32,000 nucleotides of DNA. It comes from Fibrobacter succinogenes subsp. succinogenes S85. Lineage in GTDB: Bacteria > Fibrobacterota > Fibrobacteria > Fibrobacterales > Fibrobacteraceae. Below are positions 8,524 to 23,116 of this stretch, one piece after another (positions within the stretch are counted from its first letter, which is position 1; every line of letters begins with the position of its first letter). The stretch spans positions 2,190,001-2,222,000 of the forward strand of contig NC_017448.1 in assembly GCF_000146505.1 (NCBI RefSeq), written 5' to 3'. The notes beneath the pieces were generated by a model, which saw only the letters and a list, made by a program, of their open reading frames with translations, was not told the origin of the DNA and ran no database searches. A program made the translations under genes and the position numbers.

Positions 8524-9728
8524 AAGTCCTCGTCATAGGCTCCGTCTATCCAAGATTTCAAGAAGATGCCGAAGTTCCCTGGCTGCGCACTTCCATCGCG
8601 CATTTGAAAAAAGCGGGCGTTGAAATCCAGGTACTCGCTCCTGCATACAAAGGACTCAAGAGCCACGACATTGACGGAACGCACGTGAACCGCTTCCGTT
8701 ACGCACCCGCAAGCTGGGAAATCCTCACGCACGAAGAAGGCGCCCCAAGCAAGATGGCCTCCAAGCCATGGTTGCAACTGCTCGCCATCCCTTACATCAT
8801 CAACGGATTTTTTCAGTGCATCAGGATTTGCCGCAAGTGGCGCCCTGACGTGATTCACGCGCACTGGCCGTTTCCGCACGCTTACATTGCACTCGGTGCG
8901 GCCAAGCTTTTTAAAATTCCGCTCGTACTGAACTTCCATGGTGCAGAACTCCTGCTCATCCGCAAAAAGAAGTGGGTCAAACCGCTCCTGAAATTTGCCA
9001 TCGGACAGGCTCAGGCGATCTTTGCAAACTCAAGTTTCACCGCCGGAAAAATCAAGGCGCTCCGCAACGTAGACGTTGAATGGAGTCCGTACGGAACTAC
9101 GCTAGAGACGAGTAGGTTGCAAGGTGAGTGTCGCAACGGCAAATTCAAAATTCTCTTTGTCGGGCGGCACATCGAACGCAAGGGAATCTGCTACCTCATC
9201 GAAGCCGCGAAATACCTGCCCAGAGACAAGTTCGAAATCCGCATTGTCGGTGTCGGTGACTTGACCGAACAGCTTAAGCAGCAAGCAGCTTTATTAGACG
9301 AGAGACAAAAGACGAAAGACGAGAGAGGGGCCGAAATCATTTTCACGGGAAAGCTTTCTCCTGAAGATCTCGCAAACGAATACCGCACGGCAAACGTCTT
9401 TACGCTACCGGCCATCGTTGATCACAAGGGTGACACCGAAGGACTCGGGGTCGTGCTCATCGAAGCGATGGAACTTGGACTGCCGATTGTTGCAAGCAAT
9501 GTCGGTGGCATCCCGGATGTCGTTGTCAATGGAGAGTCCGGAATTCTCGTTCCTGAAAAAGACCCTGTTGCACTTGCCAATGCCTTCAAGCGTCTCGAAG
9601 CAGACCCGACATTGATTCAAAAACTCCTTGCCGGCGCCCGCAAACGCATTGACAAATGCTTCACCTGGGACGGCATCATCGAACGCCAGGTTGAAGTGTA
9701 CAAGAAAGTAGTAGACAGTAGGAAGTAG
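8520..9728 (+). CDS. Glycosyltransferase family 4 (GT-B)
   Basis: C-terminal signature EGLGVVLIEAMELGLPIVASNVGGIPDVVVNGESGILVP. The N-terminal domain (VLAPAY.., HAHWPFPH) is typical of GT4. Confidence 0.85.
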   Translation: MKVLVIGSVYPRFQEDAEVPWLRTSIAHLKKAGVEIQVLAPAYKGLKSHDIDGTHVNRFRYAPASWEILTHEEGAPSKMASKPWLQLLAIPYIINGFFQCIRICRKWRPDVIHAHWPFPHAYIALGAAKLFKIPLVLNFHGAELLLIRKKKWVKPLLKFAIGQAQAIFANSSFTAGKIKALRNVDVEWSPYGTTLETSRLQGECRNGKFKILFVGRHIERKGICYLIEAAKYLPRDKFEIRIVGVGDLTEQLKQQAALLDERQKTKDERGAEIIFTGKLSPEDLANEYRTANVFTLPAIVDHKGDTEGLGVVLIEAMELGLPIVASNVGGIPDVVVNGESGILVPEKDPVALANAFKRLEADPTLIQKLLAGARKRIDKCFTWDGIIERQVEVYKKVVDSRK

Positions 9729-9746
9729 GAAGTAGGAAGTTAGAAG
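9719..9746 (+). repeat. (TAGGAAG)x3 + TTAGAAG heptamer array
   Basis: Read directly. The GT4 stop codon (9726-9728) is the second TAG. TAGs at 9719, 9726 and 9733 fall in all three frames. Confidence 0.9.
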
Positions 9747-9766
9747 TAAAAACAGATAAAAAATAA

Positions 9767-10364: not shown

Positions 10365-11114
10365 TCAAGGGGTATTTGAAAAATAAACCTTTGTTTCCAT
10401 AAAATTTTCGCCCCACTCTATCAGGCGCCAGCGCGGTGCAGCCGAACTCAGACAAAATACCGTAATGTTTGGGTCAATCTGCATCTGCGTCGACGGCGTG
10501 ACATACACAGTCTTGTCTTCAAGCTGGATAGTCATCTCGCTGTGGTAATGCCCGACAAAAATATGCTTAAGATTCTTAATCTTCGAAAGCGTCGCCTGGA
10601 CTTCGGCAATATTCTTCATCGAATATCTCAAATCCATGAACTTGTGGCCGCAAAGGCAAGGCGGGTGATGGAGGAACAGCAGGACTTCACCATCAATTTT
10701 AGCCGTCTCCTGCTCAAGCCATGAAAGCTGATCGGACGAAACCGTGCCGTCTGCACTATCCAAGAAGAAAATCGAACGTCCGTCGAGATCGTAGCGGTAA
10801 TAGCACTTTCCGTTATGGACCTTGTCCTTCAAGTCAAAGACCTTTTCCATGACTTCAAGATTGTCGTGATTTCCAGGAATAATGCAGACCGGGACCTTGC
10901 TGTCCTTGATGACACCGGCAATGAAAGAATAGGCGTCTGTGGACGCATTGTCGGCCAAGTCTCCAGAAAGCACCAAAAGGTCCAAATCCTTCATGGATTC
11001 GGAATTATAGGCCGTAAGGAAATTCTTGCGAACATCGATATCCTGCACAAGGCGGTCATCGTCACCGATGTGCGCATCCGATATCTGACCTATCTTGAGT
11101 ACTTTCTTTTCCAT
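10365..11114 (-). CDS. Calcineurin-like metallophosphoesterase (CpdA-type cyclic-nucleotide phosphodiesterase family)
   Basis: Ordered motifs DAHIGD, GDLADN, GNHDN, HHPP and GHYH. Start taken at ATG 11112-11114 (MEKKVLKIGQ...). Confidence 0.8.
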   Translation of the reverse strand: MEKKVLKIGQISDAHIGDDDRLVQDIDVRKNFLTAYNSESMKDLDLLVLSGDLADNASTDAYSFIAGVIKDSKVPVCIIPGNHDNLEVMEKVFDLKDKVHNGKCYYRYDLDGRSIFFLDSADGTVSSDQLSWLEQETAKIDGEVLLFLHHPPCLCGHKFMDLRYSMKNIAEVQATLSKIKNLKHIFVGHYHSEMTIQLEDKTVYVTPSTQMQIDPNITVFCLSSAAPRWRLIEWGENFMETKVYFSNTP

Positions 11115-11455
11115 ACAACTACGTAGAATATACATGAATATAGCTATTGAGACACGAAAATGAAAAGTTTGTCCGTTTTTTTATGCATTTTGTGATGACA
11201 GGCATACTTTTGTGAACTTTGTCACACAATCTTCAACATACTTTCGTGACCATTTCGTGAATTAACATTGAAAACTCTGGTTCAACATCTATCAACGTTG
11301 AAAAAAGTGAATAGATTTTAAATTTTCAACATTAATCCACATTTTGTTTATTTCTGTAACTCGTTGATTTTCATAGAGTTACATTTTTGATTTCAAATTT
11401 TTATCCACTATTCACTACATTAAATATTAAATACTATATATAAATATATCTAATA

Positions 11456-11833
11456 TTATTTAATAGAGGTGGTTGATTGTTTTTCCTTCTTGCCTGCAGG
11501 CGTTTCGTTCATGTCGCAAGCACCCTGGAAGATGGCTCCTTCGTTGATGACGAGCTGTTCTGCCTTTACATTACCGATTATTTTGGCATTGTCCTGTAGA
11601 ATGAGCTTTCCGTTGCATTCTACATTTCCCTTGATAGCACCTGCAAGAATAGCGGTGCCACACTTGACATCGCCTTCTATAATTGCAAGCTTTTCGAGAA
11701 TCAGTTCTCCGTCAATAAAGACGTTTCCATAAACCTTTCCGGCGATGCGCAAATCCGTTTTTCCGGCAATATCTCCATTGACCTGGACACTTCTACCAAC
11801 TTGAGTAAATTCCTGTTCGTTTTTGCTCGCCAT
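11456..11833 (-). CDS. Bactofilin (polymer-forming cytoskeletal protein)
   Basis: 125 aa of repetitive beta-helix pattern (G.V.G.I......I.G.V.GNV) with a short Lys/Glu-rich tail. SD is AAAGGGGAAAATT-ATG. Confidence 0.85.
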   Translation of the reverse strand: MASKNEQEFTQVGRSVQVNGDIAGKTDLRIAGKVYGNVFIDGELILEKLAIIEGDVKCGTAILAGAIKGNVECNGKLILQDNAKIIGNVKAEQLVINEGAIFQGACDMNETPAGKKEKQSTTSIK

Positions 11834-11862
11834 AATTTTCCCCTTTCTTATTTGGCTATCTT

Positions 11863-12663
11863 CTAGTATGTAAATATCGTTTCCGGATCTTGCGGCAGGT
11901 TATTCTTGGTAATGGAATAATGCAAGTGCGGACCGCTCGTGTTGCCAGTGTCGCCTACATAACCGATAACATCGCCTTTTGTGACATTCGCTCCTCTTCG
12001 GGTTCTGATACTCTTGAGGTGTGAATAAGACGATTTGTAACCGTTCTGGTGGTCGATGACAATAGTGTTTCCAAGGTCGCCGCTATTACCTGCAAATGTG
12101 ACCTTGCCGCTACCCGATGCAAAGACCGGGTTCCCCTTGCGTGCAGAAATGTCAATTCCCAGGTGCTTGTTTTCATACGAGAATTTTTTGCTGATGATAC
12201 CTACGGCCGGGATGACGTTCGGGATGCGTTCCAAGCGAATTTTTTCGTCGGTCGTAAGCCAGTTGTGTATCCCTTCGAAGTCGATTTGGTTTTTCGCTGA
12301 AGGCACGTGCGCAAATCGGTTGCGTTCTATAATGCTGTTAATCTTGTTGGAGTCGTTTTCAAGGAATGTCTCGAAAATATTCTGGATTCGGTTTTCCATG
12401 ATCCACAGTGAATCAAGTCTCGAGAAGAACTCTTCGTAGTTCGCGTTCTGCTTCACGAGCTGTGCGTTGTGTACGCGCATCTTTTCATAATTTGCGAGAG
12501 TCTTGTTGATTTTTGCAATGTGGACTATGAATAAAATAAGTATGATGGCAACAAGGACAAGCCCGACATTGAACAAGACAAATTGCTTGTTCGAAATGCG
12601 GAACTTTCTTGCACCGGTCGTGTTTTCCGGAATAATCTGGATGGTGTAATACTTACGACTCAC
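11863..12663 (-). CDS. M23 (LytM-type) peptidase with N-terminal TM helix and coiled coil
   Basis: HLGIDISA, GNTIVIDHQNGYKSSYSHL, GYVGDTGNTSGPHLHYSI. GTG start lies 10 nt after the parB stop. Confidence 0.85.
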   Translation of the reverse strand: MSRKYYTIQIIPENTTGARKFRISNKQFVLFNVGLVLVAIILILFIVHIAKINKTLANYEKMRVHNAQLVKQNANYEEFFSRLDSLWIMENRIQNIFETFLENDSNKINSIIERNRFAHVPSAKNQIDFEGIHNWLTTDEKIRLERIPNVIPAVGIISKKFSYENKHLGIDISARKGNPVFASGSGKVTFAGNSGDLGNTIVIDHQNGYKSSYSHLKSIRTRRGANVTKGDVIGYVGDTGNTSGPHLHYSITKNNLPQDPETIFTY

Positions 12664-12673
12664 GATTTTACCG

Positions 12674-13672
12674 TTAGCGATTGTCCATTATTTCCTGGAT
12701 TCTTGTCAGGTCGTCCATGGAATAATAGTTGATGACGATGGTGCCTCTAGTCTGGTCCTTGGCGTTCGGGTTGAGTGCGACCTTTGTACCGAAGAATGTT
12801 TCGAGCCTGTTTTCGAAGTTCTTGAGGTCAGCGCTGAGTTCCGGCTTCGGTCTCGGTTCGCTGCCGTGGACTTCCGGCATTTCATCTTCTTCGGGAGTAG
12901 ATGCGCCATTTTCCGGTTCAGCTTCTTTCGTCTCTCCCTCGTCTCTCGTCTGGGCGAACGGATCTTCACCGCGGGCAATAGCTTCGATCTGGCGAACGTT
13001 CAAGCCTTCTTCGATGACGCGCTTTGCGAGAGCTTCCGGGTCTGCAATTTTTTCACTGCAGAGAGCACGGGCGGCACCGCCTGCAAGTTTGCCTTCTTGG
13101 ATCCAGGCTTGCACCTGGTTCGGGAGTTTCAAGAGACGAAGTGCGTTCGTGATGGCAGAACGGGACTTGCCGACCGTCTTGGCCAAGTCGTCGTGCGTGT
13201 AGTTGTGGTTGTCGATCAACTGCTGGTAGGATTGTGCCACTTCAATCGGGTTCAAGTCCACGCGCTGGATGTTCTCGATGAGAGCCCATTCGCTCATGGT
13301 CTTGTCGTCAAGATTGTCGTAAACCTGAGCCTTGATGGTTCTGCAGTTGGCAAGTTTCGATGCACGAGTACGGCGTTCACCGCTGATGATTTGATAACGG
13401 TCGCCCACCTTGCGGACAGCAATCGGCTGGATAAGGCCGTGCTTTTCGATGGTTTCAGCAAGTTCGACAAGTTCATCGTCGTCGAAGAACTTGCGCGGCT
13501 GGAACGGGTTCGGGTCAATCAAGTCAATGTTGATTTCGACGATTTTCTGATTGTCCGTATTTACGTTTTCAGTAGCTCCGGTATTGTTGATGGCGTTATC
13601 GACAGAGTTGCCGAGAACATCGTGTGCCTTAAAAATTGCAGAGAGACCGCGACCAAGTGCTTGTTTACCCAT
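12674..13672 (-). CDS. parB: Chromosome partitioning protein ParB/Spo0J
   Basis: GRGLSAIF box, IQPIAVRK...YQIISGERRTRASKLA (ParB box/CTPase motif), an HTH region, and a C-terminal dimerisation domain after an acidic linker. Confidence 0.95.
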   Translation of the reverse strand: MGKQALGRGLSAIFKAHDVLGNSVDNAINNTGATENVNTDNQKIVEINIDLIDPNPFQPRKFFDDDELVELAETIEKHGLIQPIAVRKVGDRYQIISGERRTRASKLANCRTIKAQVYDNLDDKTMSEWALIENIQRVDLNPIEVAQSYQQLIDNHNYTHDDLAKTVGKSRSAITNALRLLKLPNQVQAWIQEGKLAGGAARALCSEKIADPEALAKRVIEEGLNVRQIEAIARGEDPFAQTRDEGETKEAEPENGASTPEEDEMPEVHGSEPRPKPELSADLKNFENRLETFFGTKVALNPNAKDQTRGTIVINYYSMDDLTRIQEIMDNR

Positions 13673-13686
13673 TTTTTAGTTCTCAG

Positions 13687-13786
13687 TTAGTAGTTAATAG
13701 TTGCTAGAATATTTAGTTGGCAGAACTTAGACCGCTTCGCTCTTAGAACTTAGAAAAAAATACTAAGCTCTAAGCTCTAAGTTCTA
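13687..13786. repeat. TAG/CTA-word palindromic spacer between parA and parB
   Basis: Plus strand: TTAGTAG TTAATAG TTGCTAG (13687-13707) ... CTTAGAACTTAG-A7-TA-CTAAGCT CTAAGCT CTAAGTT CTA (13763-13786). TAGAACTTAG (13744-13753) is complementary to CTAAGTTCTA (13777-13786). The parA stop (13784-13786) is the first TAG of the minus-strand array. Confidence 0.8.
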
Positions 13787-14569
13787 TTTTTCCTTATTCA
13801 GTATTTCTTCGGCGAGCTTCATGTACGACTGCGAGCCTGTGCTCTGTACATCGTAAAGGATGACCGGCTTGCCATGGGACGGGGCTTCGGAGAGTTTCAC
13901 GTTGCGCGGGATCATCGTCTGGAAAACGGTGTCGCTCAAGTTCTCGCGAACTTCTTCAGCGACCTGCTTTGAAAGGCTCAGACGGGAATCGTACATCGTG
14001 AGGAGGGCGCCTTCGATTTTCAAGTTGGAGTTCAGATTCTTCTGGACTTCACGGATGGTCTTGAAAAGTTCAGTCATACCTTGCAATGCATAATATTCAC
14101 ACTGCACCGGAATGAGCACGCTTGTTGCGGCCGTCAGTGTATTAATTGTGAGTAAGTTCAGGCTCGGAGGAGCGTCGATGATGATAAAATCGAACTCCTG
14201 CTTGAGAACGTTCATCACGCGTTCGAGTCTGCGTTCGCGGCTCATGGCGTTGACAAGTTCAATTTCCATGACGGCAAGGTCCGGTCCAGAAGTGATGACC
14301 TTGAGGTATTCAAGCGACGTGTCCAAGATGGCGGGCTTGATATTTTCGAGCGTGAGATTGTCCGGATTACCAGCCATGTCCAGAATTTCGTGGATATCCA
14401 TGTCCTGGGATTCCATGAAACCGAGACCTTGAGAGGCATTACCCTGCGGGTCCATGTCTAAAAGAAGTGTCTTCTTTTCAAGGGCTGCAAAACTCGCGGC
14501 CAAGTTCACGGCCGTAGTAGTTTTACCGACGCCACCTTTTTGGTTGCATATGGCGATAATTTTACTCAT
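13784..14569 (-). CDS. parA: Chromosome partitioning ATPase ParA/Soj
   Basis: Deviant Walker A (MSKIIAICNQKGGVGKTTTAVNLA), DMDPQGNAS, IIIDAPPSL. Confidence 0.95.
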   Translation of the reverse strand: MSKIIAICNQKGGVGKTTTAVNLAASFAALEKKTLLLDMDPQGNASQGLGFMESQDMDIHEILDMAGNPDNLTLENIKPAILDTSLEYLKVITSGPDLAVMEIELVNAMSRERRLERVMNVLKQEFDFIIIDAPPSLNLLTINTLTAATSVLIPVQCEYYALQGMTELFKTIREVQKNLNSNLKIEGALLTMYDSRLSLSKQVAEEVRENLSDTVFQTMIPRNVKLSEAPSHGKPVILYDVQSTGSQSYMKLAEEILNKEK

Positions 14570-15215
14570 TATTACCTCGGGTGACTAGAGCGTACACCTG
14601 TTCTTCTTCTGGAAGTTCATACTTCTGGATATGCACTTTCGGATCGTTTTCCAAATGGGCAATATTGTTGAAGCTCTTCAGCGTGACAAAAACACCACCA
14701 CGCTTGAGACCTGCCTGGGCGCGTTCCCAGTCGTTTTCAAAAGTCGAGAGGGCGCGGCAGCTGATAAAATCAAGGTCGGTGAGGCCGGAAGTTTCAAAGC
14801 GCTTGCCGACGACGGTCAAGTTGTCCAAGTGGAGCTTTTCCTTGACCATCTGCATAAAGTTCACGCGCATGTGGCGTGGTTCGACAGCATAGAACTGCAC
14901 GTTCGGCATGGCAATTGCAAGCGGAAAAACTGGGCAACCTGCTCCAGCACCCATATCTGCCCAGCGTACAGTGTCATCCTGAGTGGACAGTGTTTTTCCT
15001 AAAAACACAAAGGGAACGAGAGAGTCGGCAATGTGCCTGCTTAAAAACTTTTCAGAATCCTTTGCCGAAATCAAGTTACCATATTCCTTGGTGTCCACCA
15101 CCAAGTCTGCAAACTGGTAAAGCTTGTCGAGAGTCTCTTCGGACAGCTGCACGCCATGTCCCGAAAGGAACTGGTTCAAAAGATCTTGCTGCGCTTTGTT
15201 AGTTCTATAACTCAA
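14562..15215 (-). CDS. rsmG: 16S rRNA (guanine527-N7)-methyltransferase RsmG (GidB)
   Basis: SAM-binding DMGAGAGCPVFPLAI. Typical length and typical position immediately upstream of parA (8-nt overlap). Apparent TTG start at 15213-15215. Confidence 0.9.
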   Translation of the reverse strand: MSYRTNKAQQDLLNQFLSGHGVQLSEETLDKLYQFADLVVDTKEYGNLISAKDSEKFLSRHIADSLVPFVFLGKTLSTQDDTVRWADMGAGAGCPVFPLAIAMPNVQFYAVEPRHMRVNFMQMVKEKLHLDNLTVVGKRFETSGLTDLDFISCRALSTFENDWERAQAGLKRGGVFVTLKSFNNIAHLENDPKVHIQKYELPEEEQVYALVTRGNNE

Positions 15216-15242
15216 GTTTTCTCTTTTTGTGATATGGAAAAA

Positions 15243-15322
15243 TGTTTGGACACTTCGTGTCCAACATGCTCATGCTCGGTCATGCCGGTGTACAAGCACC
15301 CCGTCGCGACACTCGCTATCGC
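15243..15322. repeat. Three-hairpin element, copy 1 (GGACAC hairpin - linker - ACAAG-loop hairpin - small hairpin)
   Basis: TGTTTGGACAC-TTC-GTGTCCAACA (15243-15266), linker ..GCTCGGTCAT.., GGTGT-ACAA-GCACC (15287-15300), GCGA-CAC-TCGC. The same order and similar spacing are seen at 15895-15972. Confidence 0.7.
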
Positions 15323-15407
15323 ATGTTTGCTCCTTCGGAGCCAACTTGCTGCACCTCGGAAATGTCGGTAAACAAGTTTCCCGCCGCTTCCTCGGTTTGC
15401 AATTGTT
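15323..15407 (+). repeat. 85-bp direct repeat, copy A
   Basis: 84/85 identical to 15814-15898. Begins with the hairpin TGTTTGCTCC-TTC-GGAGCCAAC. Its last 4 nt (TGTT) are also the first 4 nt of parS at 15404. Confidence 0.9.
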
Positions 15408-15419
15408 TCACGTGGAACA
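15404..15419. other. parS: parS centromere-like site, TGTTTCACGTGGAACA
   Basis: 15/16 match to the palindromic consensus TGTTTCACGTGAAACA, and identical to the reverse complement of the Bacillus subtilis-type TGTTCCACGTGAAACA. Lies 190 bp upstream of rsmG-parAB. Confidence 0.85.
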
Positions 15420-15544
15420 TTTTTGACTATCATATTCCGATTTGAAATTTAGTATAACTTTTTTAGAAAACAATTAACAAACTCCCCCGCTCCCTAAAAT
15501 TCATAAAATATATGTTGATAACATTTTGATAAATGTTGAGAAAC

Positions 15545-15795
15545 TGTTAAGCCGAATGCTGCGAAATGTATGCTTGCATACATTTCATAGCTGAGGCGCC
15601 AGTTTCGCGCTTGCGCAAATGTTGTTAAGGCGAGAGTTGCGGAAAGCATGCTTGCATGCTTTCCATAACCGAGCCGACCAACATAGCGCTTGCGCAGAAC
15701 TTGTTAAGGTGAGAGTCGCAAAAATAAGCTTGCTTATTTTTATGACCGAACCGCTGAGTTCGCGCTTGCGCAAAAATTGTTAAGGTGAGAGTCGC
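15545..15795 (+). repeat. Tandem array, about 3.3 units of 76-79 bp, each with two CTTG-loop hairpins
   Basis: Unit landmarks TGTTAAG at 15545/15623/15702/15778. Long-hairpin loops (CTTG) at 15573, 15651 and 15729 are exactly 78 nt apart. The conserved short hairpin GCG-CTTG-CGC is at 15607, 15686 and 15762. The GAGAGTYGC motif is at 15632, 15711 and 15787. Confidence 0.85.
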
Positions 15796-15813
15796 TTTGT
15801 TTTTGTTTGGACT

Positions 15814-15898
15814 ATGTTTGCTCCTTCGGAGCCAACTTGCTGCACCTCGGAAATGTCGGTAAACAAGTTTCCCGCCGCTTTCTCGGTTTGCAATTGTT
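15814..15898 (+). repeat. 85-bp direct repeat, copy B
   Basis: One mismatch versus 15323-15407 (C/T at repeat position 68). Preceded by a half palindrome TGTTTGGACTAT (15804-15815) and followed by the GGACAC hairpin at 15898-15916. Confidence 0.9.
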
Positions 15899-15972
15899 AG
15901 GACACTTTGTGTCCTACCTCTTGGGGCTCAGTAATGCCCATACAAGTATGGGCGCTACATTCGCCCTGTAGA
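15895..15972. repeat. Three-hairpin element, copy 2
   Basis: TAGGACAC-TTT-GTGTCCTA (15898-15916), linker ..GCTCAGTAAT.., GCCCATA-CAAG-TATGGGC (15936-15953), CTACA-TTCGCCC-TGTAG. Same architecture as 15243-15322. Confidence 0.7.
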
Positions 15973-15988
15973 GGTTTCACGTGAAACA
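15973..15988. other. parS: parS site, GGTTTCACGTGAAACA
   Basis: 15/16 match to the consensus; only the outermost base differs. It forms the 5' end of a 105-nt structured module (15973-16077). Confidence 0.85.
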
Positions 15989-15995
15989 CAGCCGA

Positions 15996-16077
15996 GGTCA
16001 GAAAGCGAAAAAATGCTTGCATTTTTTTATTTGCTGACCGATGGGTGTTGGACTATGGCTTTGCTATAGTCCAAACA
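15996..16077 (+). repeat. Long A/T hairpin (CTTG loop) plus TGTTGGAC...GTCCAAACA palindrome
   Basis: GGTCAG-AAAGCG-AAAAAATG-CTTG-CATTTTTTT-ATTTG-CTGACC (15996-16039), then TGTTGGACTATGG-CTTT-GCTATAGTCCAAACA (16046-16077). Confidence 0.8.
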
Positions 16078-16078
16078 T

Positions 16079-16106
16079 ATAAAAAATCCTCCCGATTCTG
16101 GGAGGA
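16079..16106 (-). terminator. Intrinsic terminator of the 16132-16851 lipoprotein gene
   Basis: On the minus strand, the hairpin TCCTCCC-AGAATC-GGGAGGA is followed by T6. Confidence 0.75.
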
Positions 16107-16131
16107 TGTTCAAGAAGTTTAAAGCTAAATG

Positions 16132-16851
16132 TTAGCGGTATAAAAAGAAGTAAGTTCCGGTCTTGCGGTCTTCCCCATCTTCCGTATGTGTATCGGTCAG
16201 TGTGACCATCCCGTCTTTAACACCAGTTTCGTAACGATTCCAGGTGTACCAAATGTCGCCACGATGTTCTTTCCTATAGCAGGTATTTTTATCGTTCTCG
16301 TCCATGACAATGATTTCATTATAATCAATTCTGAAAATGGTATCTGTTTTCATGACGTAAGTGATGGTAGATTCGCCGTCTTCGTCGGTGGATGTGGTGG
16401 CCAAGGAATCCCCGTCGAAATAGATGGTCATTGTATTGCTTACATCGCCGACTGTTTCAGTTATTGTCCAAATGTTGCCTTCGTGTACAACTGTAGGTTC
16501 TTGGGTTCTTACAGTGGTCTGGTATGTCCATTCACCATTGCGGAGGTTTGCTTCGTAAGCACTGTCGAGGTGTGTGCCAGTCCAGTATGCTTTATAAATG
16601 TAGATGGATTTGCCTCTATTACTAGCGCTACCCTTGTCCATGTAAAGACTGTCTGGTACTAAACCATGATAATCCTTGTCGTAGATAGAAAGAGTAGATC
16701 TCTTGTAATCGAATACTGTTTGGAGACAGTTGGTGTAGGTATATCCTACAGGATTATTGGTGGGTGAATTATTGACAGGTGCTGTGCTTGATGAATCATC
16801 GCTGCAGGCAACAAATAGTGCTGCTGCTAAAAGAAAAATTTTAGAGTTCAT
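16132..16851 (-). CDS. Hypothetical lipoprotein
   Basis: Lipobox LAAALFVAC followed by a Ser/Asp-rich linker. 239 aa, beta-rich. Confidence 0.7.
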   Translation of the reverse strand: MNSKIFLLAAALFVACSDDSSSTAPVNNSPTNNPVGYTYTNCLQTVFDYKRSTLSIYDKDYHGLVPDSLYMDKGSASNRGKSIYIYKAYWTGTHLDSAYEANLRNGEWTYQTTVRTQEPTVVHEGNIWTITETVGDVSNTMTIYFDGDSLATTSTDEDGESTITYVMKTDTIFRIDYNEIIVMDENDKNTCYRKEHRGDIWYTWNRYETGVKDGMVTLTDTHTEDGEDRKTGTYFFLYR

Positions 16852-16942
16852 AACTCCCCCAAGATATATTTGAAAAGATTAAATAGATAATTAAGTTGTG
16901 TGTAAATCTAATCAAATGGATGAGAAAATGCAAGGATATTTG

Positions 16943-17476
16943 TTAGTGAGCTGGTTTTTGTTCTTGTCGCGAAAAGTTTTCTATGAAGAACGGAAGTGTA
17001 ACCATTTTCAAAAACCATCCAACATTGCGTTGCTTGTTGGTGATTTCAAAAGAAACACCTGCTGTTAACTGAACTAAGAAAATCCCAAATTGTATTCCCA
17101 TTTCTTCAACGAATCCGAACTCTTTAACGGAATAATGGTATTTGTTGTCTTGTCCTTCAGATCTAAGGAACCATTCTATGGCATGACTTTCGGCCAGTGC
17201 AACTCCGGAAAGATTGTTTCCATGCAATATGTACTTTGTTGTTCCGGATGCAAACCACATTCCTCCCAATGCTATTTTCCGTAAGGTACTTTCTTTTGGA
17301 GCTGCCATTCCGAGAATGCCAAATCCTATAAACGATACTGCACTTCCGATTGATAAGTCATTGATTTTCTTGTCACCTTCGGTTCTTTCTAGCCTGCGAT
17401 CAAATCGTAGAAATGTATAGTCTGTAAGTAGTCGGTCGATGCCGAAAAGCTTGCTCCCCATGTCTTGAGCGCTCAT
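16943..17476 (-). CDS. Hypothetical protein, 177 aa (possibly the C-terminal part of a split gene)
   Basis: ATG 17474-17476 overlaps the stop of the upstream 70-aa ORF (ATGA). No signal peptide of its own. Hydrophobic and Gly-rich segments. Confidence 0.5.
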   Translation of the reverse strand: MSAQDMGSKLFGIDRLLTDYTFLRFDRRLERTEGDKKINDLSIGSAVSFIGFGILGMAAPKESTLRKIALGGMWFASGTTKYILHGNNLSGVALAESHAIEWFLRSEGQDNKYHYSVKEFGFVEEMGIQFGIFLVQLTAGVSFEITNKQRNVGWFLKMVTLPFFIENFSRQEQKPAH

Positions 17477-17685
17477 GCAAAATATATCCACTTCAAATCT
17501 TTTGTGGTGGATGTATATCCTATCCCTCCTAAGAATATTACCTGGAAAGGGTTGTATTTGTTTTCGTAGATGTTGCTTAGGTCTATAGAAAAAGTGGAAT
17601 CCTGCACTGGATTTTCCAATACAGATATTTTTGCAAAAGCAAAAGATATAGAGATGAGGAATATGGTAAGAGTCTTTTTAATCAT
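17473..17685 (-). CDS. Small secreted protein, 70 aa (possibly the N-terminal part of a split gene)
   Basis: MIKKTLTIFLISISFAFA signal peptide. The ATG overlaps the stop of the VOC gene (ATGA at 17682-17685). The longer track ORF (to 17907) overlaps the VOC gene and is rejected. Confidence 0.5.
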   Translation of the reverse strand: MIKKTLTIFLISISFAFAKISVLENPVQDSTFSIDLSNIYENKYNPFQVIFLGGIGYTSTTKDLKWIYFA

Positions 17686-18086
17686 ATAGTAATCTCTATT
17701 CTGTTGCCTTCGGGGTCGAGGACGACACTTTCGTAATACCCGTCGCCGGTAGTTCGAGGTTGACCTACAATAGGAGTCCCTTCGGAAGACATTTGTTGGG
17801 TCAGGTGGTCGACCTCTTCTTTTGAACCGACGGAAAAGGAAAGATGGGTAAATCCGAGATGTTCCACGTGAAACATCTCGACAGTCCCAACATTTCGTTC
17901 GACACATATATCAGGGCGGTGCATGACTTCTAGGCGGGCACCATCATCGAAAGTGATGAATCGGCTGGTGAATTGTTTTGCTGGGTTATGGTAAATCGGG
18001 TGGACTACCCCGCCGAAATATTTCCGGTAGAACTCGCATACCTTGTCGATATCTTTAACCCAGATGGCAATATGTTCAATCTTCAT
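17682..18086 (-). CDS. VOC family protein (glyoxalase/bleomycin-resistance/dioxygenase fold)
   Basis: MKIEHIAIWVKDIDKVCEFY...HLSFSV...YYESVVLDPEGNRIEI. Typical size of 134 aa. Confidence 0.8.
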   Translation of the reverse strand: MKIEHIAIWVKDIDKVCEFYRKYFGGVVHPIYHNPAKQFTSRFITFDDGARLEVMHRPDICVERNVGTVEMFHVEHLGFTHLSFSVGSKEEVDHLTQQMSSEGTPIVGQPRTTGDGYYESVVLDPEGNRIEITI

Positions 18087-18143
18087 AAAACCTCTATAAA
18101 CAATATACCTATTTCGAATAGAAAAAATTCCATGAACATATCA

Positions 18144-18159
18144 TGTTTCACGTGAAACA
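18144..18159. other. parS: parS site, TGTTTCACGTGAAACA (perfect consensus)
   Basis: 16/16 palindrome, located in the divergent intergenic region between the VOC gene and the 18298 gene. Confidence 0.9.
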
Positions 18160-18166
18160 CAATCAA

Positions 18167-18265
18167 GAATACCAAGCAAAAACATACTCGTATGTTTTTA
18201 TTTGGTATTCGCAGAGTGTAGGACTACGATGTAATCGTAGTCCCAACACATGAGCCGAGAGTCGC
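18167..18265 (+). repeat. Second copy of the long A/T hairpin + GGAC palindrome module, followed by GAGAGTCGC
   Basis: GAATACCA-AGC-AAAAACATA-CTCG-TATGTTTTT-AT-TTGGTATTC (18167-18210), TGTAGGACTACGAT-GTA-ATCGTAGTCCCAACA (18217-18248), GAGAGTCGC (18257-18265). Confidence 0.8.
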
Positions 18266-18297
18266 AGATTTCTATTATATATTAGTATATTTATCAC

Positions 18298-18834
18298 ATG
18301 AAACTTTATCAATTCTTCCTCCCCTATTTAATTGTCCTTTTCATGGCAAACGCATCCTTTGCCGATGAATCCCAAAAAATAGAAAATGCCGCAGTTAACT
18401 CGAACGGATCCGGCCTTGCACTGATTCCTTGGGATCTATTTATTGGCGGAATGAATAGTTTTGTCGTAGGTGCCGACTGGATATTTGGCAATTTCAATAT
18501 TCTTTATGCTTCGACCTCCCAAGTAAATGAGGTCCCGAAACATTCGTGGGTGTGGACTCTCAGAACCCAGGCTCTTTGGGCGCCTACAATTGGTGCTTAT
18601 TTGCAGCCTACGATACAGTATATGTTTTTTGGTGGACCTTTGACAATGTTCAAGGTTTCGGTCGGACCGGAAATCGGTTATAAAAGGAAAACCGGATTTG
18701 AATATGGTGGGTCTGTCCGCGTAGGTGCATTTATGGATTTGTTGAATTTCGAAATGGGATATTTGGTAAATTCAAAACGAACCTATATGAACATCATTCT
18801 TAACCTTCCTTCGGGTCTCGGAATTTGGGTTTAA
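18298..18834 (+). CDS. Hypothetical secreted protein, 178 aa (beta-rich, possibly a membrane beta-barrel)
   Basis: Signal peptide LIVLFMANASFA. Alternating hydrophobic pattern, aromatic- and Gly-rich. Confidence 0.6.
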   Translation: MKLYQFFLPYLIVLFMANASFADESQKIENAAVNSNGSGLALIPWDLFIGGMNSFVVGADWIFGNFNILYASTSQVNEVPKHSWVWTLRTQALWAPTIGAYLQPTIQYMFFGGPLTMFKVSVGPEIGYKRKTGFEYGGSVRVGAFMDLLNFEMGYLVNSKRTYMNIILNLPSGLGIWV

Positions 18835-19905: not shown

Positions 19906-20109
19906 GTATTCTTTAGACGCCGAGTTCCCCGCGAGCTTGGCTTTTTTCATATGGAACAATTATAGCGCTCTAAATTTTAATACAACATATATTATGTAGT
20001 TGATAAACTGACTTAATTTTATTAACTATTGAATTTATAAATCAAAAAAAACTGTAAAAATTCATTTTTATTGTTTATAGATAATGAACAATTTTTCTCA
20101 CAATAACTA

Positions 20110-20125
20110 TGTTTCACGTGGAACA
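20110..20125. other. parS: parS site, TGTTTCACGTGGAACA
   Basis: Same 16-mer as at 15404. Lies in an AT-rich 418-bp intergenic region, 11 nt upstream of a perfect DnaA box. Confidence 0.85.
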
Positions 20126-20136
20126 ATTTCAGTTTT

Positions 20137-20145
20137 TGTGGATAA
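20137..20145. promoter_or_regulatory. DnaA box, TGTGGATAA (perfect E. coli-type consensus, reverse orientation)
   Basis: Exact 9-mer. Whether this organism uses this consensus is not known from the window alone. Confidence 0.45.
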
Positions 20146-20292
20146 TATGTAAAATTGTGAGATAAAAGGTTGATTCGCGTTGAATATTTGATAACATTAT
20201 ATCAACATATATTTTTACGCTTGTAGACGGAAAATTTAGTCAGGCTTTCATTTATTCGGTTTACATATATTATATTTCTTTGTGGAGGCTTT

Positions 20293-21011: not shown

Positions 21012-22064
21012 CTAAAAATATGTTGCGACGTACTTTTTCTGGAATTCCGGATCTTCGTGCGCCCAGTGCTTTTCTTCCATCGCCTGGTATTGCCAGTTGA
21101 GCGCCTGCATAAATTTTTCCGGCTCGCAGAGATTCTTGAAAATCGCATCGAGGTCGTCGACCGTCGCACTTGAGCTGACTAACTGTTCTTTCGGAATGTA
21201 GCTGTACGGAGAACTTGCGAAATCGCTCCCGATGAAAACCGCTCCGAGTGCGGCCGCTTCCTTGAGCTTTAAGTCGCTCTTTGCGCGGTTGAAATTGTTG
21301 GCGGCGAGCGGTGCCAGGAAAAAGTCGGGCTTGTAGCTCGCGACCGTCTGTGCGAACGGCAAAAAACTCGTGAAAGGAATCTTCGTGAATTTTCCGTCGA
21401 GGTCCTTCAGAAAATCCGGCTCGCCAAAAATCTGGAAGTCGATGCTCCCGTCTTCGATGTGCTTGCGGATCCAGGGAATCCATGCGCCTTCGAGGTCGCC
21501 CGGAATTTCGGCTGTGAAATGTCCGAGACTGCCGGCATACATCACCTTCGGTTTTCCCGAGAAAGCAGACGTCCTCTGTGACATCCCGAACAGCGACTTT
21601 GAAATACCGTTCGGCATCACCACCGCGTTTACGCCGAGGTCGGACTTGATGCGGCTCGCGAGGTAGCGCGTCGAGCAGACTACCACGTCAAACAGCGGCA
21701 ACACCTGCTTGAGACTCGTGAGCATCATCTGGTCGTGATTCGGAATCTGCTTCGCGTACGAAGCGATCACCGGTGACAAATCCCACTGCAAGTCATCCAG
21801 GTCAGTCACGAGCTTGAACCCGCATTCCTTCTTGAGCTTCGCATAGAACAACGCAAGTTGCGCGCGACCCGGCGCCGTCGGCTTCTGCAGAATCACCGCC
21901 CGCGTCTGCTTGAGTGCGTCTTTGTTCGCACAGACAATCTGGGTGATAGACGGCACGACCTGAAAATCGTTAGGCCCCATGAACTGGGTGCAAGGCAAAA
22001 TGCAGCGAACCCAGTCGGATTGCGCCATGTCATAAGGATGCACGATAACTTGCGTTCTGATCAT
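21012..22064 (-). CDS. Putative GT-B fold glycosyltransferase-like protein
   Basis: 350-aa clean ORF. The C-terminal half has ...KVMYAGSLG...DFFLAPL..NNFNRAKSDLKLKEAAALGAVFIGS, reminiscent of the GT1/GT4 nucleotide-sugar-binding half. The functional call is weak. Confidence 0.45.
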   Translation of the reverse strand: MIRTQVIVHPYDMAQSDWVRCILPCTQFMGPNDFQVVPSITQIVCANKDALKQTRAVILQKPTAPGRAQLALFYAKLKKECGFKLVTDLDDLQWDLSPVIASYAKQIPNHDQMMLTSLKQVLPLFDVVVCSTRYLASRIKSDLGVNAVVMPNGISKSLFGMSQRTSAFSGKPKVMYAGSLGHFTAEIPGDLEGAWIPWIRKHIEDGSIDFQIFGEPDFLKDLDGKFTKIPFTSFLPFAQTVASYKPDFFLAPLAANNFNRAKSDLKLKEAAALGAVFIGSDFASSPYSYIPKEQLVSSSATVDDLDAIFKNLCEPEKFMQALNWQYQAMEEKHWAHEDPEFQKKYVATYF

Positions 22065-22330
22065 GGAAGGAAAAGTAGTAAAAAGTTTGATGGAAGTGCC
22101 GCGGAATGAGGAGGGGAATACGCAGAATTTGTGAAAAATAGATGCTGTATTTAGAAAAAATAAAGTGTTTGTTTATAAAAAAATATGTTTTTGTGACAAG
22201 TTTGTTTTGAAATTTTTTTTTGTTTATATTTGGTCAAAAAATAGGAATACGATTGTAGATAGAACTTTGTTTGGTATGAAGTTATTTTCAATCATATGAG
22301 AAAAAGTAAACTATAACAGGAAAAAATTCT

Positions 22331-23116
22331 ATGAAAAGAGAATACGAAAAATATAAAAATGGTTTTACTAAAGTTCCTGAATATATTGTGAATGCGATGC
22401 AGGGATTGGCTTATTGGATTGGTTATAAAAAATGCCTCTATAATTATTATCCGTTGTCTGAATGTGCTATTGTGTCAGAATTTTCATCGTTGTTGCAATC
22501 TGGTGCAAATGAGGACGAAATAGTATTATGTGAACGACAGTATTGTAACTTTTTTACAGAAGAAAATATCCCAGAAGATGTGGATGGGAAAAGAGTGGAT
22601 CTTACGGTGGCTGAACTGGAAAATAATCATAATCAAAATGAAGTTCATAATATTCTTGCTCATGATAATAAACAAGAAAAAGGTTTTTTAAGGGATAAAG
22701 CAAAAGTTGTTTTTGAAGTCAAATTACATCGCAGTTCAAGGACATTAATAGATAACGATTTTAAAAGGTTAAAAAAAATAAAAGATGCTAATGAATCTAT
22801 TGTTACATATTTATTGCTTGTTTCGGAAAATGAAATTCCAGAAGAATTTGTAGATATTAGCTCTGGGCATGGTAAAAAAGATTATCAATTAACGAACAAT
22901 AGACATAATGATGAAAATGCACCTCATATTCATGTTTCCAAGGTAAGATATGTTTTGAATCAAAAACTTGATGCGCCTCAATTAAAAGGATGGATTTCGC
23001 AAACGTTGGACTCTGATGAAGCTGATGTAGATGAGGCGATAAAAGATCAAATTGATTTTATAAGTAGTAAAATGCTATCGCGAGGTGCATTTGTGTGTTT
23101 GATTGAAGTTGTATAA
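22331..23116 (+). CDS. Hypothetical protein with a possible PD-(D/E)xK nuclease core, in an AT-rich island
   Basis: 261 aa. Candidate motif order: E (SECAIVSEF helix) ... D (GKRVDLTVAE strand) ... ExK (VVFEVKLH strand). GC is about one third by eye, versus about one half in flanking genes. Confidence 0.45.
   Translation: MKREYEKYKNGFTKVPEYIVNAMQGLAYWIGYKKCLYNYYPLSECAIVSEFSSLLQSGANEDEIVLCERQYCNFFTEENIPEDVDGKRVDLTVAELENNHNQNEVHNILAHDNKQEKGFLRDKAKVVFEVKLHRSSRTLIDNDFKRLKKIKDANESIVTYLLLVSENEIPEEFVDISSGHGKKDYQLTNNRHNDENAPHIHVSKVRYVLNQKLDAPQLKGWISQTLDSDEADVDEAIKDQIDFISSKMLSRGAFVCLIEVV

Follow-up and report, generated by a model that had tools for sequence, protein, structure and literature searches.

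What does a tandem array of covarying hairpins represent beside the chromosome partition genes of Fibrobacter succinogenes, and do its compensatory base changes reflect a structured RNA or a process acting on DNA? The array lies at 15539–15795 of a 32,000-nt window from F. succinogenes subsp. succinogenes S85 (NC_017448.1, positions 2,190,001 to 2,222,000 of the forward strand), to which all coordinates refer unless another locus is named, and comprises three full units and a truncated fourth. A 900-nt gap that precedes the minus-strand operon rsmG(gidB)-parA-parB-M23 peptidase-bactofilin houses the array. As mapped through locus L066 of CP001792.1, which is identical to the window across the region, the array corresponds to about 1,758,816–1,759,072 and the window to about 1,743,278–1,775,277 in that accession. 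The array is read here, at a probability of roughly 0.6, as a strain-variable tandem cluster of Fibrobacter-specific, ~80-nt non-coding hairpin repeat elements that act at the DNA level. This reading draws on the observed structure and covariation of the units, the orientation rule that their relatives obey, the insertion polymorphism and dispersal of those relatives, and the variability of the array among strains.

Tandem Repeats Finder places the array at 15604–15795 (period 76, 2.5 copies), and a repeat search recovers the direct-repeat families D1 and D5 as well as three inverted repeats across it (15558–15573/15576–15591, 15636–15651/15654–15669, and 15715–15729/15732–15746). The TT loop centers of the three hairpins are spaced exactly 78 and 78 nt apart. 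Thus, the coordinates given in a preliminary description of the sequence, which had proposed a 78-nt array of three full units and a partial one, all hold, and the long hairpins described there, with covarying stems, a CTTG loop, a G·T/C·A mismatch, and 78-nt spacing, are borne out by the inverted repeats and by folding. Upon folding, each unit forms a ~66-nt long hairpin with four stems (e.g., a, GAAACTG/CAGTTTC; b, GCC/GGC; c, GCTGC/ATAGC; and d, the variable inner stem), followed by a short 10-nt hairpin, GCGCTTGCGC, between units. Two outer stems are thereby added to those described previously, and these also covary (GAAACTG/CAGTTTC, ATGTTG/CAACAT, and GAACT/AGTTC). The conserved unpaired segments are TTAAG and a purine-rich GAGAG opposite CGA, while a conserved tandem mismatch (G·T, then C·A) marks the boundary between stems c and d, and the apex is CTTG.

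All units are in direct orientation on the plus strand. Unit 1 (type A, 15539–15616), unit 2 (type B, 15617–15695), and unit 3 (type C, 15696–15771) match a covariance model, R1, built from the array units, with scores of 98.6, 95.5, and 90.9 bits, respectively; they contain the inverted repeats I14, I15, and I16, and their short hairpins lie at 15607–15616, 15686–15695, and 15762–15771. The fourth unit (AAAAATTGTTAAGGTGAGAGTCGC, 15772–15795, plus strand) breaks off at the foot of stem d, the inner stem. The junction GCGCTTGCGC-N5-TTGTTAAGG-N-GAGAGT-N-GC has three matches in the window versus none in 100 shuffles. The short hairpin had been called nearly invariant, which is correct within the window; elsewhere, it covaries (GTGC/GCAC, GCAC/GTGC, GGGC/GCCC, and GGAC/GTCC). 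The folding z-score is approximately −6.3 on either strand, and both strands are computed to be equally foldable as single-stranded DNA.

The array has a narrow distribution and changes rapidly. In a collection of species-representative genomes, its junction pattern is found in only three Fibrobacter genomes, once each and at a syntenic locus. The array is always preceded by a conserved AT-rich leader (15437–15539), and a metagenome search with 26 nt of this leader (GTTGATAACATTTTGATAAATGTTGA, 15514–15539) yields 55 rumen loci; the 26-mer is identical in these and in L001, L004, and L007, which were found via a different pattern. The array starts directly after the leader in 59 of 59 loci and its complete units number from 0 to at least 4. 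Some six types of unit recur, in an order that varies by strain (ABC, AC, ACB, DEAF, EAC, CBD, FAE, EDF, and others), and chimeric units are present among the loci. At every locus, the array is closed by a truncated unit, whose type and length vary and which is fused to unrelated downstream DNA. Fibrobacter sp. UWB11 (ParB 87% identical) harbors the leader and one unit, whereas species with 74–77% ParB identity lack the array, with synteny, parS cluster, and the core of the leader being preserved. On the basis of the variation in unit number and of this absence, the array is therefore a recent, dispensable, and fast-changing addition in the F. succinogenes clade. A phage origin of the units was considered and rejected, as the unit motif has no match in viral contigs.

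The 59 loci provide 45 distinct units, for which RNAalifold predicts 25 pairs. Of these pairs, 18 have changed on both sides. Paired cells amount to 94.8%, compared with 81.3% in shuffles (0/500 reach the observed value) and 33–47% when the partners are slid. The hairpin fold is clearly maintained and is not a product of chance. The compensatory changes had been taken as strong evidence for a functional fold; the maintenance of the fold is confirmed, while a discrete functional RNA or a processed species of ~78 nt is unsupported.

A structured non-coding RNA would be transcribed rightward from the leader and either cut (e.g., by RNase III) into hairpins of ~66–78 nt or employed whole as a multi-hairpin sponge or scaffold. 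Strong covariation in four stems is what such an RNA would leave behind, and a CUUG apex closed by a G-C pair is a stable type of RNA tetraloop. The internal loop, being purine-rich on the plus strand (GAGAG opposite CGA, with possible tandem G·A pairs) and pyrimidine-rich on the other, is likewise consistent with an RNA, as are the very high conservation of the leader and the greater frequency of G·U than of A·C in stem a. However, a consensus scan of the leader finds a single promoter-like site (TTGTTA-18-TATACT, 15451–15480, minus strand, a consensus match only), which is directed at rsmG and away from the array, and none that faces the array. A scan for terminator-like sites detects none in or after the array, with those found elsewhere (16107–16086 and 15264–15246) being on the minus strand. 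Rfam 15, searched over the window at the gathering score, yields tRNA-Met as its sole match, and at E ≤ 5 over 15150–18350 it yields only two chance-level matches, both outside the array, so no Rfam match falls in the array. The units are also dispensable, numbering 0 in several strains and forming no array in related species, and the wider family described below has members on either strand with respect to genes, some of them antisense within rsmG.

With the conserved mismatch excluded, the stems are nearly all Watson–Crick. Among ~1050 pairs, 21 are G·T and 13 are A·C, so G·T is not clearly commoner and the excess of wobble pairs typical of RNA helices is not observed, including in stems c and d. 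An RNA of this kind is thus considered unlikely. Wobble asymmetry was also evaluated as a means of choosing the folded strand and was uninformative. A K-turn in the GAGAG/CGA loop was discarded on account of a register unlike that of the canonical K-turn and of unit type E, which has a continuous helix at this place. The junction palindrome as an expanded pseudo-parS (GTTTC-GCGCTTGCGC-AAAAC) was discarded as well, being inconsistent across unit types.

Alternatively, amplification of transcription terminators or insulators might have given rise to the hairpins, which would then protect parS and the rsmG promoter against read-through. Many inner stems go from an A-run to a T-run, as in bidirectional terminators, and the array faces a convergent gene; on the other hand, this gene has its own canonical terminator at 16086–16107, the scan finds none in the array, and the T-runs lie inside the larger hairpin instead of following a GC-rich stem. 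A locally amplified terminator had been named in the preliminary description as the competing case, and it does not apply because no T-run follows the hairpins. A role in termination or insulation is accordingly regarded as very improbable.

Changes in individual units point to events on DNA. In a type C variant (array unit 2 of L027/L045), CTTG is replaced by CAAG and ATGAC by GCGAC, with loss of the conserved GC/AT mismatch. The effect is that the 3′ half has been made the exact reverse complement of the 5′ half and the loop has been inverted, which is the classical signature of a template switch (quasipalindrome correction) at the DNA level. In L022, an inversion joint at the hairpin apex links two modules of opposite orientation; together with the chimeric units, it shows recombination at the shared GCTTGC apex. 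Template switching and apex recombination can create new complementary upper stems without selection at the RNA level. Of 76 distinct hairpins, 48 have the tandem mismatch, always with GC on the 5′ arm facing AT on the 3′ arm. Because template switching would erase this mismatch, its retention in a single orientation argues that a strand-specific folded form is recognized by something. Striking compensatory stem changes within a single locus can therefore stem from the dynamics of DNA palindromes and do not suffice on their own to demonstrate a structured RNA.

The array units belong to a wider family of modules, whose distribution is tied to parS. The palindrome GTTTCACGTGRAAC, which is the canonical chromosomal parS, occurs at five sites between 15.4 and 20.1 kb, versus 0.18 expected, and these adjoin parA and parB. 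A pattern search places them at 15404–15419, between rsmG and the leader with parA and parB adjacent; at 15973–15988, with outward-facing modules on either side; at 17860–17875, inside a glyoxalase-family gene and without a module; at 18144–18159; and at 20110–20125. The site TGTTTCACGTGGAACA at 15404 matches the canonical 16-bp palindrome TGTTNCACGTGAAACA. It is these flanking palindromes, not the array units, that qualify as chromosomal parS.

Model R1 finds six weaker relatives of the array units in the window, all at 15.2–18.3 kb, as well as 172 matches in 30 related loci. The non-array modules share a plan of ~80 nt, consisting of a long hairpin with a hypervariable but complementary upper stem, a short GC hairpin (e.g., GGACAC-GAA-GTGTCC), and (A/C)AACA, and they possess the lower-stem motifs and tandem mismatch of the array units. 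The element tail is AAACA in the parS type and AAAAC-like in the array, and the apex is usually CTTG. Array-type units differ from parS-type modules in the linker (TGTTAAG, resembling the TGTTGA repeats of the leader) and in the short hairpin, and hybrids of the two exist (L033). Among non-array modules within 150 nt of a parS, 89 point away from it and 3 toward it. The typical starting point of a module is parS+11, such that the foot of its hairpin is paired with the final bases of parS, and a second module often begins at about +120. Every module in the window points away from parS, and the array does likewise relative to the parS at 15404.

The modules are also gained and lost as discrete pieces of DNA. 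Between parS and the glyoxalase gene, some strains have an empty junction, GTGAAACA|TGTTCACGG, while in others this exact point is filled by a class-1 module of 81 nt or by a different module, of class 5, with AAACA at the end of each insert. Between parS and the leader, the junction GTGGAACA|TTTTTGACTATC is empty in S85 and eight other loci, whereas L042 has a 79-nt module ahead of the identical flank, and at least four module classes occupy this site across strains. A module follows the GAAAC half-site in 49 of 124 cases but the GGAAC half-site in only 3 of 32 (Fisher p = 0.0013). Near-identical copies (inner stem AGCCATG-CTTG-CATGGAT) are found at unrelated places (ahead of a glycosyltransferase gene, behind AGTAGGA heptamer repeats, and past the 3′ end of valS); the S85 region is organized differently from the locus in which a module precedes the glycosyltransferase gene. 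The rsmG gene of L007 contains an in-frame insertion of two tandem modules, which lengthens the product by 70 aa (287 aa versus 217 aa).

Several further details accompany these insertions. The two modules in rsmG of L007 (4780–5010) are read antisense and bracketed by inverted heptamer repeats (AGACGAA... / ...TTCGTCT), and one module is present at the same place in L044 (position 747) and L034 (position 10900). In L082 (2400–2620), a module lies just past the stop codon of valS, and beyond it the final ~14 codons of this gene recur as a diverged second copy, which suggests that the insertion split or duplicated the 3′ end of valS. Heptamer repeats also occur in the window at 69–195, 9296–9326, and 9706–9750 (AGTAGGA in 3.7–4.6 copies and AGACGAA in 4.4), and the inverted AGTAGGA pair at 69–195 encloses two GC hairpins. 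In other strains, heptamer runs directly precede modules. These runs may form another part of the mosaic repeat system that includes the modules.

Hypervariable gene content lies to the right of the array, with junctions that fall inside units, and this would be accounted for if the modules were attC-like recombination sites of an integron-like cassette system. Their conserved structure, variable sequence, and asymmetric unpaired bases are reminiscent of such sites, and GTTAAGC/GTTAAGG resembles GTTRRRY. Nevertheless, GTTAAG is on the 5′ side, unpaired, and without an RYYYAAC partner, and no tyrosine recombinase (Phage_integrase) is found in the window or the fetched loci. Furthermore, modules are oriented by parS and not by cassette genes, and the inserts are modules alone, without open reading frames (ORFs). 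This explanation is the least probable of those weighed here.

The partition system itself offers another interpretation, in which hairpins or cruciforms beside parS are cis-acting DNA structures that shape ParB loading and sliding or SMC recruitment as roadblocks or boundaries, with the array being an extended version. It would explain why the outward orientation is so strict (89 versus 3) and is kept in species with 74–77% ParB identity, why the class-5 module by the rsmG-proximal parS has a conserved sequence, and why module density is so much higher in the parS cluster (about 1 per 0.5 kb) than elsewhere (about 1 per 70 kb). An action of the modules on ParB or SMC would make them the first accessory elements of a chromosomal parS to consist of structured DNA. 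Yet module-free flanks are common (75 of 124 GAAAC flanks), a given side of parS is empty in some strains and occupied by unrelated classes in others, and modules are also found far from any parS and inside a coding gene. The orientation rule is accounted for without function by target-specific insertion beside a palindrome. A structural role in partition is therefore deemed improbable.

Some of these observations, together with others, speak against locally amplified DNA elements as the explanation of the array. The outward arrangement around parS is conserved across the genus, including the species at 74–77% ParB identity, and the class-5 module beside rsmG is ~90% conserved outside its inner stem (as in L073) across species whose ParB is only 74% identical; both fit a host function as well as mobility and leave room for one in ParB/SMC biology or in the 5′ untranslated region of rsmG. 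The family is not high-copy genome-wide, since R1 detects no module in the ~27 kb of the window outside 15.2–18.3 kb, and only 1 is present in 72 kb of other Fibrobacter DNA, a limited sample. The 4–5-nt repeat at the insert boundary does not discriminate among duplication of a target site, insertion on the 3′ side of a target, and deletion between short repeats. No transposase or other mobilizing enzyme is present among the called genes of the fetched loci, in which no dedicated search for a REP-associated tyrosine transposase (RAYT/TnpAREP) gene was made.

For the elements acting at the DNA level, the following mechanism is proposed from the junction sequences. Non-autonomous hairpin elements would insert, or be copied, in a single orientation directly after the GAAAC(A) at the outer edge of parS. 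Because parS is palindromic, it would offer this target on both strands and so acquire outward-facing elements on both sides. An element ends in a hairpin and AAACA, which would re-create the target, so that a further element could be added behind it and tandem runs could grow. Unequal crossing-over between units would then shuffle and resize the array, and deletions provoked by the hairpins would leave a truncated unit at the end and variable junctions on the right. The array is envisaged to have grown in the F. succinogenes clade at one fixed spot, between the leader (upstream of rsmG-parAB and containing a DnaA box) and the hypervariable gene region, ~4.5 kb from the likely origin of replication, oriC. 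The compensatory stem changes would arise from recombination at the apex (GCTTGC), from intrastrand template switching that restores complementarity, and from selection for a strand-specific folded form of single-stranded DNA, a situation that also applies to REP/REPIN sequences and the ends of IS200/IS605-type elements. Mobilization as single-stranded DNA by an HUH-type enzyme is proposed with much lower confidence than the overall reading.

Should this reading be correct, the modules constitute an undescribed Fibrobacter hairpin-repeat family whose preferred home is the outer edge of the centromere-like parS. Such a location would be an unusual safe-haven strategy for mobile DNA and a ready source of rearrangement beside the origin. 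The array is also a hypervariable, phylogenetically restricted marker, usable for typing F. succinogenes strains in rumen metagenomes. A literature search found nothing relevant on Fibrobacter small RNAs, repetitive extragenic palindromic (REP) sequences, or parS together with hairpins.

Within the window, the modules surround the array on both sides. Module X2 (class 1; 15248–15328, minus strand; 26.9 bits), recognizable by its GGACAC hairpin and AAACA, is just upstream of the rsmG start. Module X1 (class 5; 15338–15408, minus strand; 22 bits) faces away from the parS at 15404 and lies within repeat D2a (15323–15407), an 85-nt segment whose 99%-identical duplicate, D2b (15814–15898, minus strand; match at 15829–15895, 18.2 bits), follows the array. 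This direct repeat brackets parS, leader, and array and arose by recent duplication of the class-5 module; in some other strains, only one copy is present or the arrangement differs. A class-4 module (15900–15977, minus strand; 35.1 bits; single-stranded DNA fold z-score −3.6) faces away from the parS at 15973. On the plus strand, a class-3 module at 15984–16072 (repeat D3a; 28.8 bits; fold z-score −6.2) consists of a long hairpin at 15996–16039 and a GGACTA hairpin, and a second one at 18155–18243 (repeat D3b; 29.6 bits) contains the long hairpin at 18167–18210. These two long hairpins, noted earlier as relatives of the array hairpins, are real (inverted repeats I7 and I1, respectively), and D3b is 73% identical to D3a with covarying stems. 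Two other candidates in this region were dropped: a small-peptide ORF resembling a ribosomally synthesized and post-translationally modified peptide in repeat D2, as the segment is a minus-strand module, and an extracytoplasmic function-type promoter within parS (TGAAAC-N16-CGT), whose −10 element is not conserved among module classes.

The leader contains a degenerate DnaA box, TTATCAACA (15513–15521, minus strand), with one mismatch to TTATCCACA. The corresponding position is close to consensus in distant species (cGTGGATAAg in L073 and TGTGGATAg in L076), and in distant Fibrobacter species the near-consensus box precedes the invariant TTTTTGATAAATGTTGA. The box may confer DnaA-dependent control on rsmG-parAB or be an accessory DnaA site. 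A broader functional proposal is that the outward-facing modules, instead of being selfish DNA, are working parts of partition or origin (cruciforms or single-stranded DNA hairpins confining ParB clamps or loading SMC at parS), or that the array is a DnaA-box-controlled multi-hairpin RNA by oriC, with the variable array tuning the function; it, too, is thought unlikely.

A location of oriC at the leader was rejected as the main interpretation, since the leader has a single DnaA box, which is degenerate in S85, no dnaA gene is present in the window, and a better candidate exists. The AT-rich region at ~19960–20290 includes the parS at 20110, a perfect DnaA box TTATCCACA (20137–20145, minus strand), and several TTGATAA-type near-boxes. 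Because parS and the perfect box both lie there and the flanks of the equivalent parS are DnaA-box-rich in other strains and species, this region is the likely oriC and the best candidate. The sign of the GC skew switches within the window.

Other features of the neighborhood concern gene content. The genes between the array and the glyoxalase gene (16132–17491, with equivalents in L063–L072) differ among strains with identical ParA, and the proteins encoded in this pocket beside the array (239 + 246, 243 + 381, 261, and 241 + 217 aa) have no Pfam match. At 22000–23116, the GC content drops sharply to 0.31 with a strong positive GC skew; this possibly foreign segment contains an ORF at 22331–23116 (261 aa) without a Pfam match. 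In L073, a distant, array-free species, sbcD and sbcC, encoding a hairpin-cleaving nuclease, lie a few kb from parAB (10920–14923), while no SbcC/SbcD match is present among those ORFs of the S85 window that were scanned.

How do the elements compare with known systems? CRISPR arrays are excluded by the nature of the "spacers", which are homologous hairpins of about six recurring types, and by the lack of cas matches among the neighbors. In type III toxin–antitoxin systems, RNA repeats accompany a toxin gene, whereas the array neighbors are rsmG, parA, parB, and small uncharacterized genes, with no toxN-like match. The array differs from intrinsic terminators in having no GC-rich stem-loop directly followed by a T-run. 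Integron attC sites share structure-based recognition and asymmetric unpaired bases that mark one strand, yet the Fibrobacter units are devoid of R″/R′ pairing, an integrase, and cassette ORFs. In contrast to miniature inverted-repeat transposable elements of the DDE type, the ends of the inserts (GTCGATAGC... and ...GTGTCCAAACA) are not mutual inverted repeats, and among the inserts compared only that in rsmG is bracketed by inverted heptamer repeats.

Closer parallels are found among small interspersed repeats. BOX elements of Streptococcus pneumoniae and variable-number tandem repeats of the mycobacterial interspersed repetitive unit type are modular and intergenic, with a middle module in strain-variable tandem copy number and a stable predicted secondary structure. 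The Fibrobacter array has no sequence relationship to them and occupies a single fixed locus by parS and the DnaA-box leader instead of being dispersed. Rickettsia palindromic elements (RPE) can be inserted in frame in protein genes, as are the modules that extend RsmG by 70 aa in L007; here again, there is no sequence relationship, and most Fibrobacter copies are intergenic. The ends of IS200/IS605 elements and of their non-autonomous derivatives carry subterminal imperfect hairpins, and insertion takes place in fixed orientation right 3′ of a short specific sequence. Similarly, the Fibrobacter element ends in its putative target sequence (AAACA), and stem a includes the ACA of parS, such that target bases pair with the hairpin foot. 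The inserts lie between ...GAAAC(A) and the flank, although the boundary repeat equally fits a 4–5-bp target-site duplication; moreover, no TnpA is found in the Fibrobacter loci, and the left and right hairpins are dissimilar.

The most extensive likeness is to the REP sequences, the bacterial interspersed mosaic elements (BIMEs), and the REPINs, which are associated with RAYT/TnpAREP, an HUH Y1 transposase. In E. coli, TnpAREP needs the conserved mid-stem mismatch bulge of REPs and no specific upper stem, and it recognizes one strand of the folded single-stranded DNA (PMC8266576), while REPINs exhibit frequent compensatory changes, tandem clusters, and insertion beside existing REPINs (PMC3116915). 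The Fibrobacter elements are likewise short, extragenic, imperfect palindromes with a conserved lower stem and a variable, compensating upper stem, and they share the strand-specific asymmetry, the mosaic and tandem clusters, and the insertion beside existing copies (PMC8266576, PMC3116915). The conserved mid-stem mismatch is present in the Fibrobacter hairpins (48/76). In contrast, the conserved 5′ GTAG of REPs is replaced by G-Y-N-G positions that covary with the 3′ arm (GTCG, GCTG, GTTG, GAAG, and GTAG). REPs are high-copy and dispersed, whereas the modules number 0 in the remaining ~27 kb of the window and 1 in the limited sample of 72 kb. The units are also ~80 nt long with a second short hairpin, and they are all direct, in contrast to the alternating orientation within BIMEs. 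The long hairpin has a compensating upper stem, as in REPINs, but the conserved motifs differ between its two arms (TTAAG..GAGAG opposite CGAGCC), which sets it apart from a simple REP doublet. Taken together, these comparisons suggest that the elements are best read as a new, parS-associated variant of the REP/REPIN/BOX/RPE class of small palindromic repeats that has been locally amplified.

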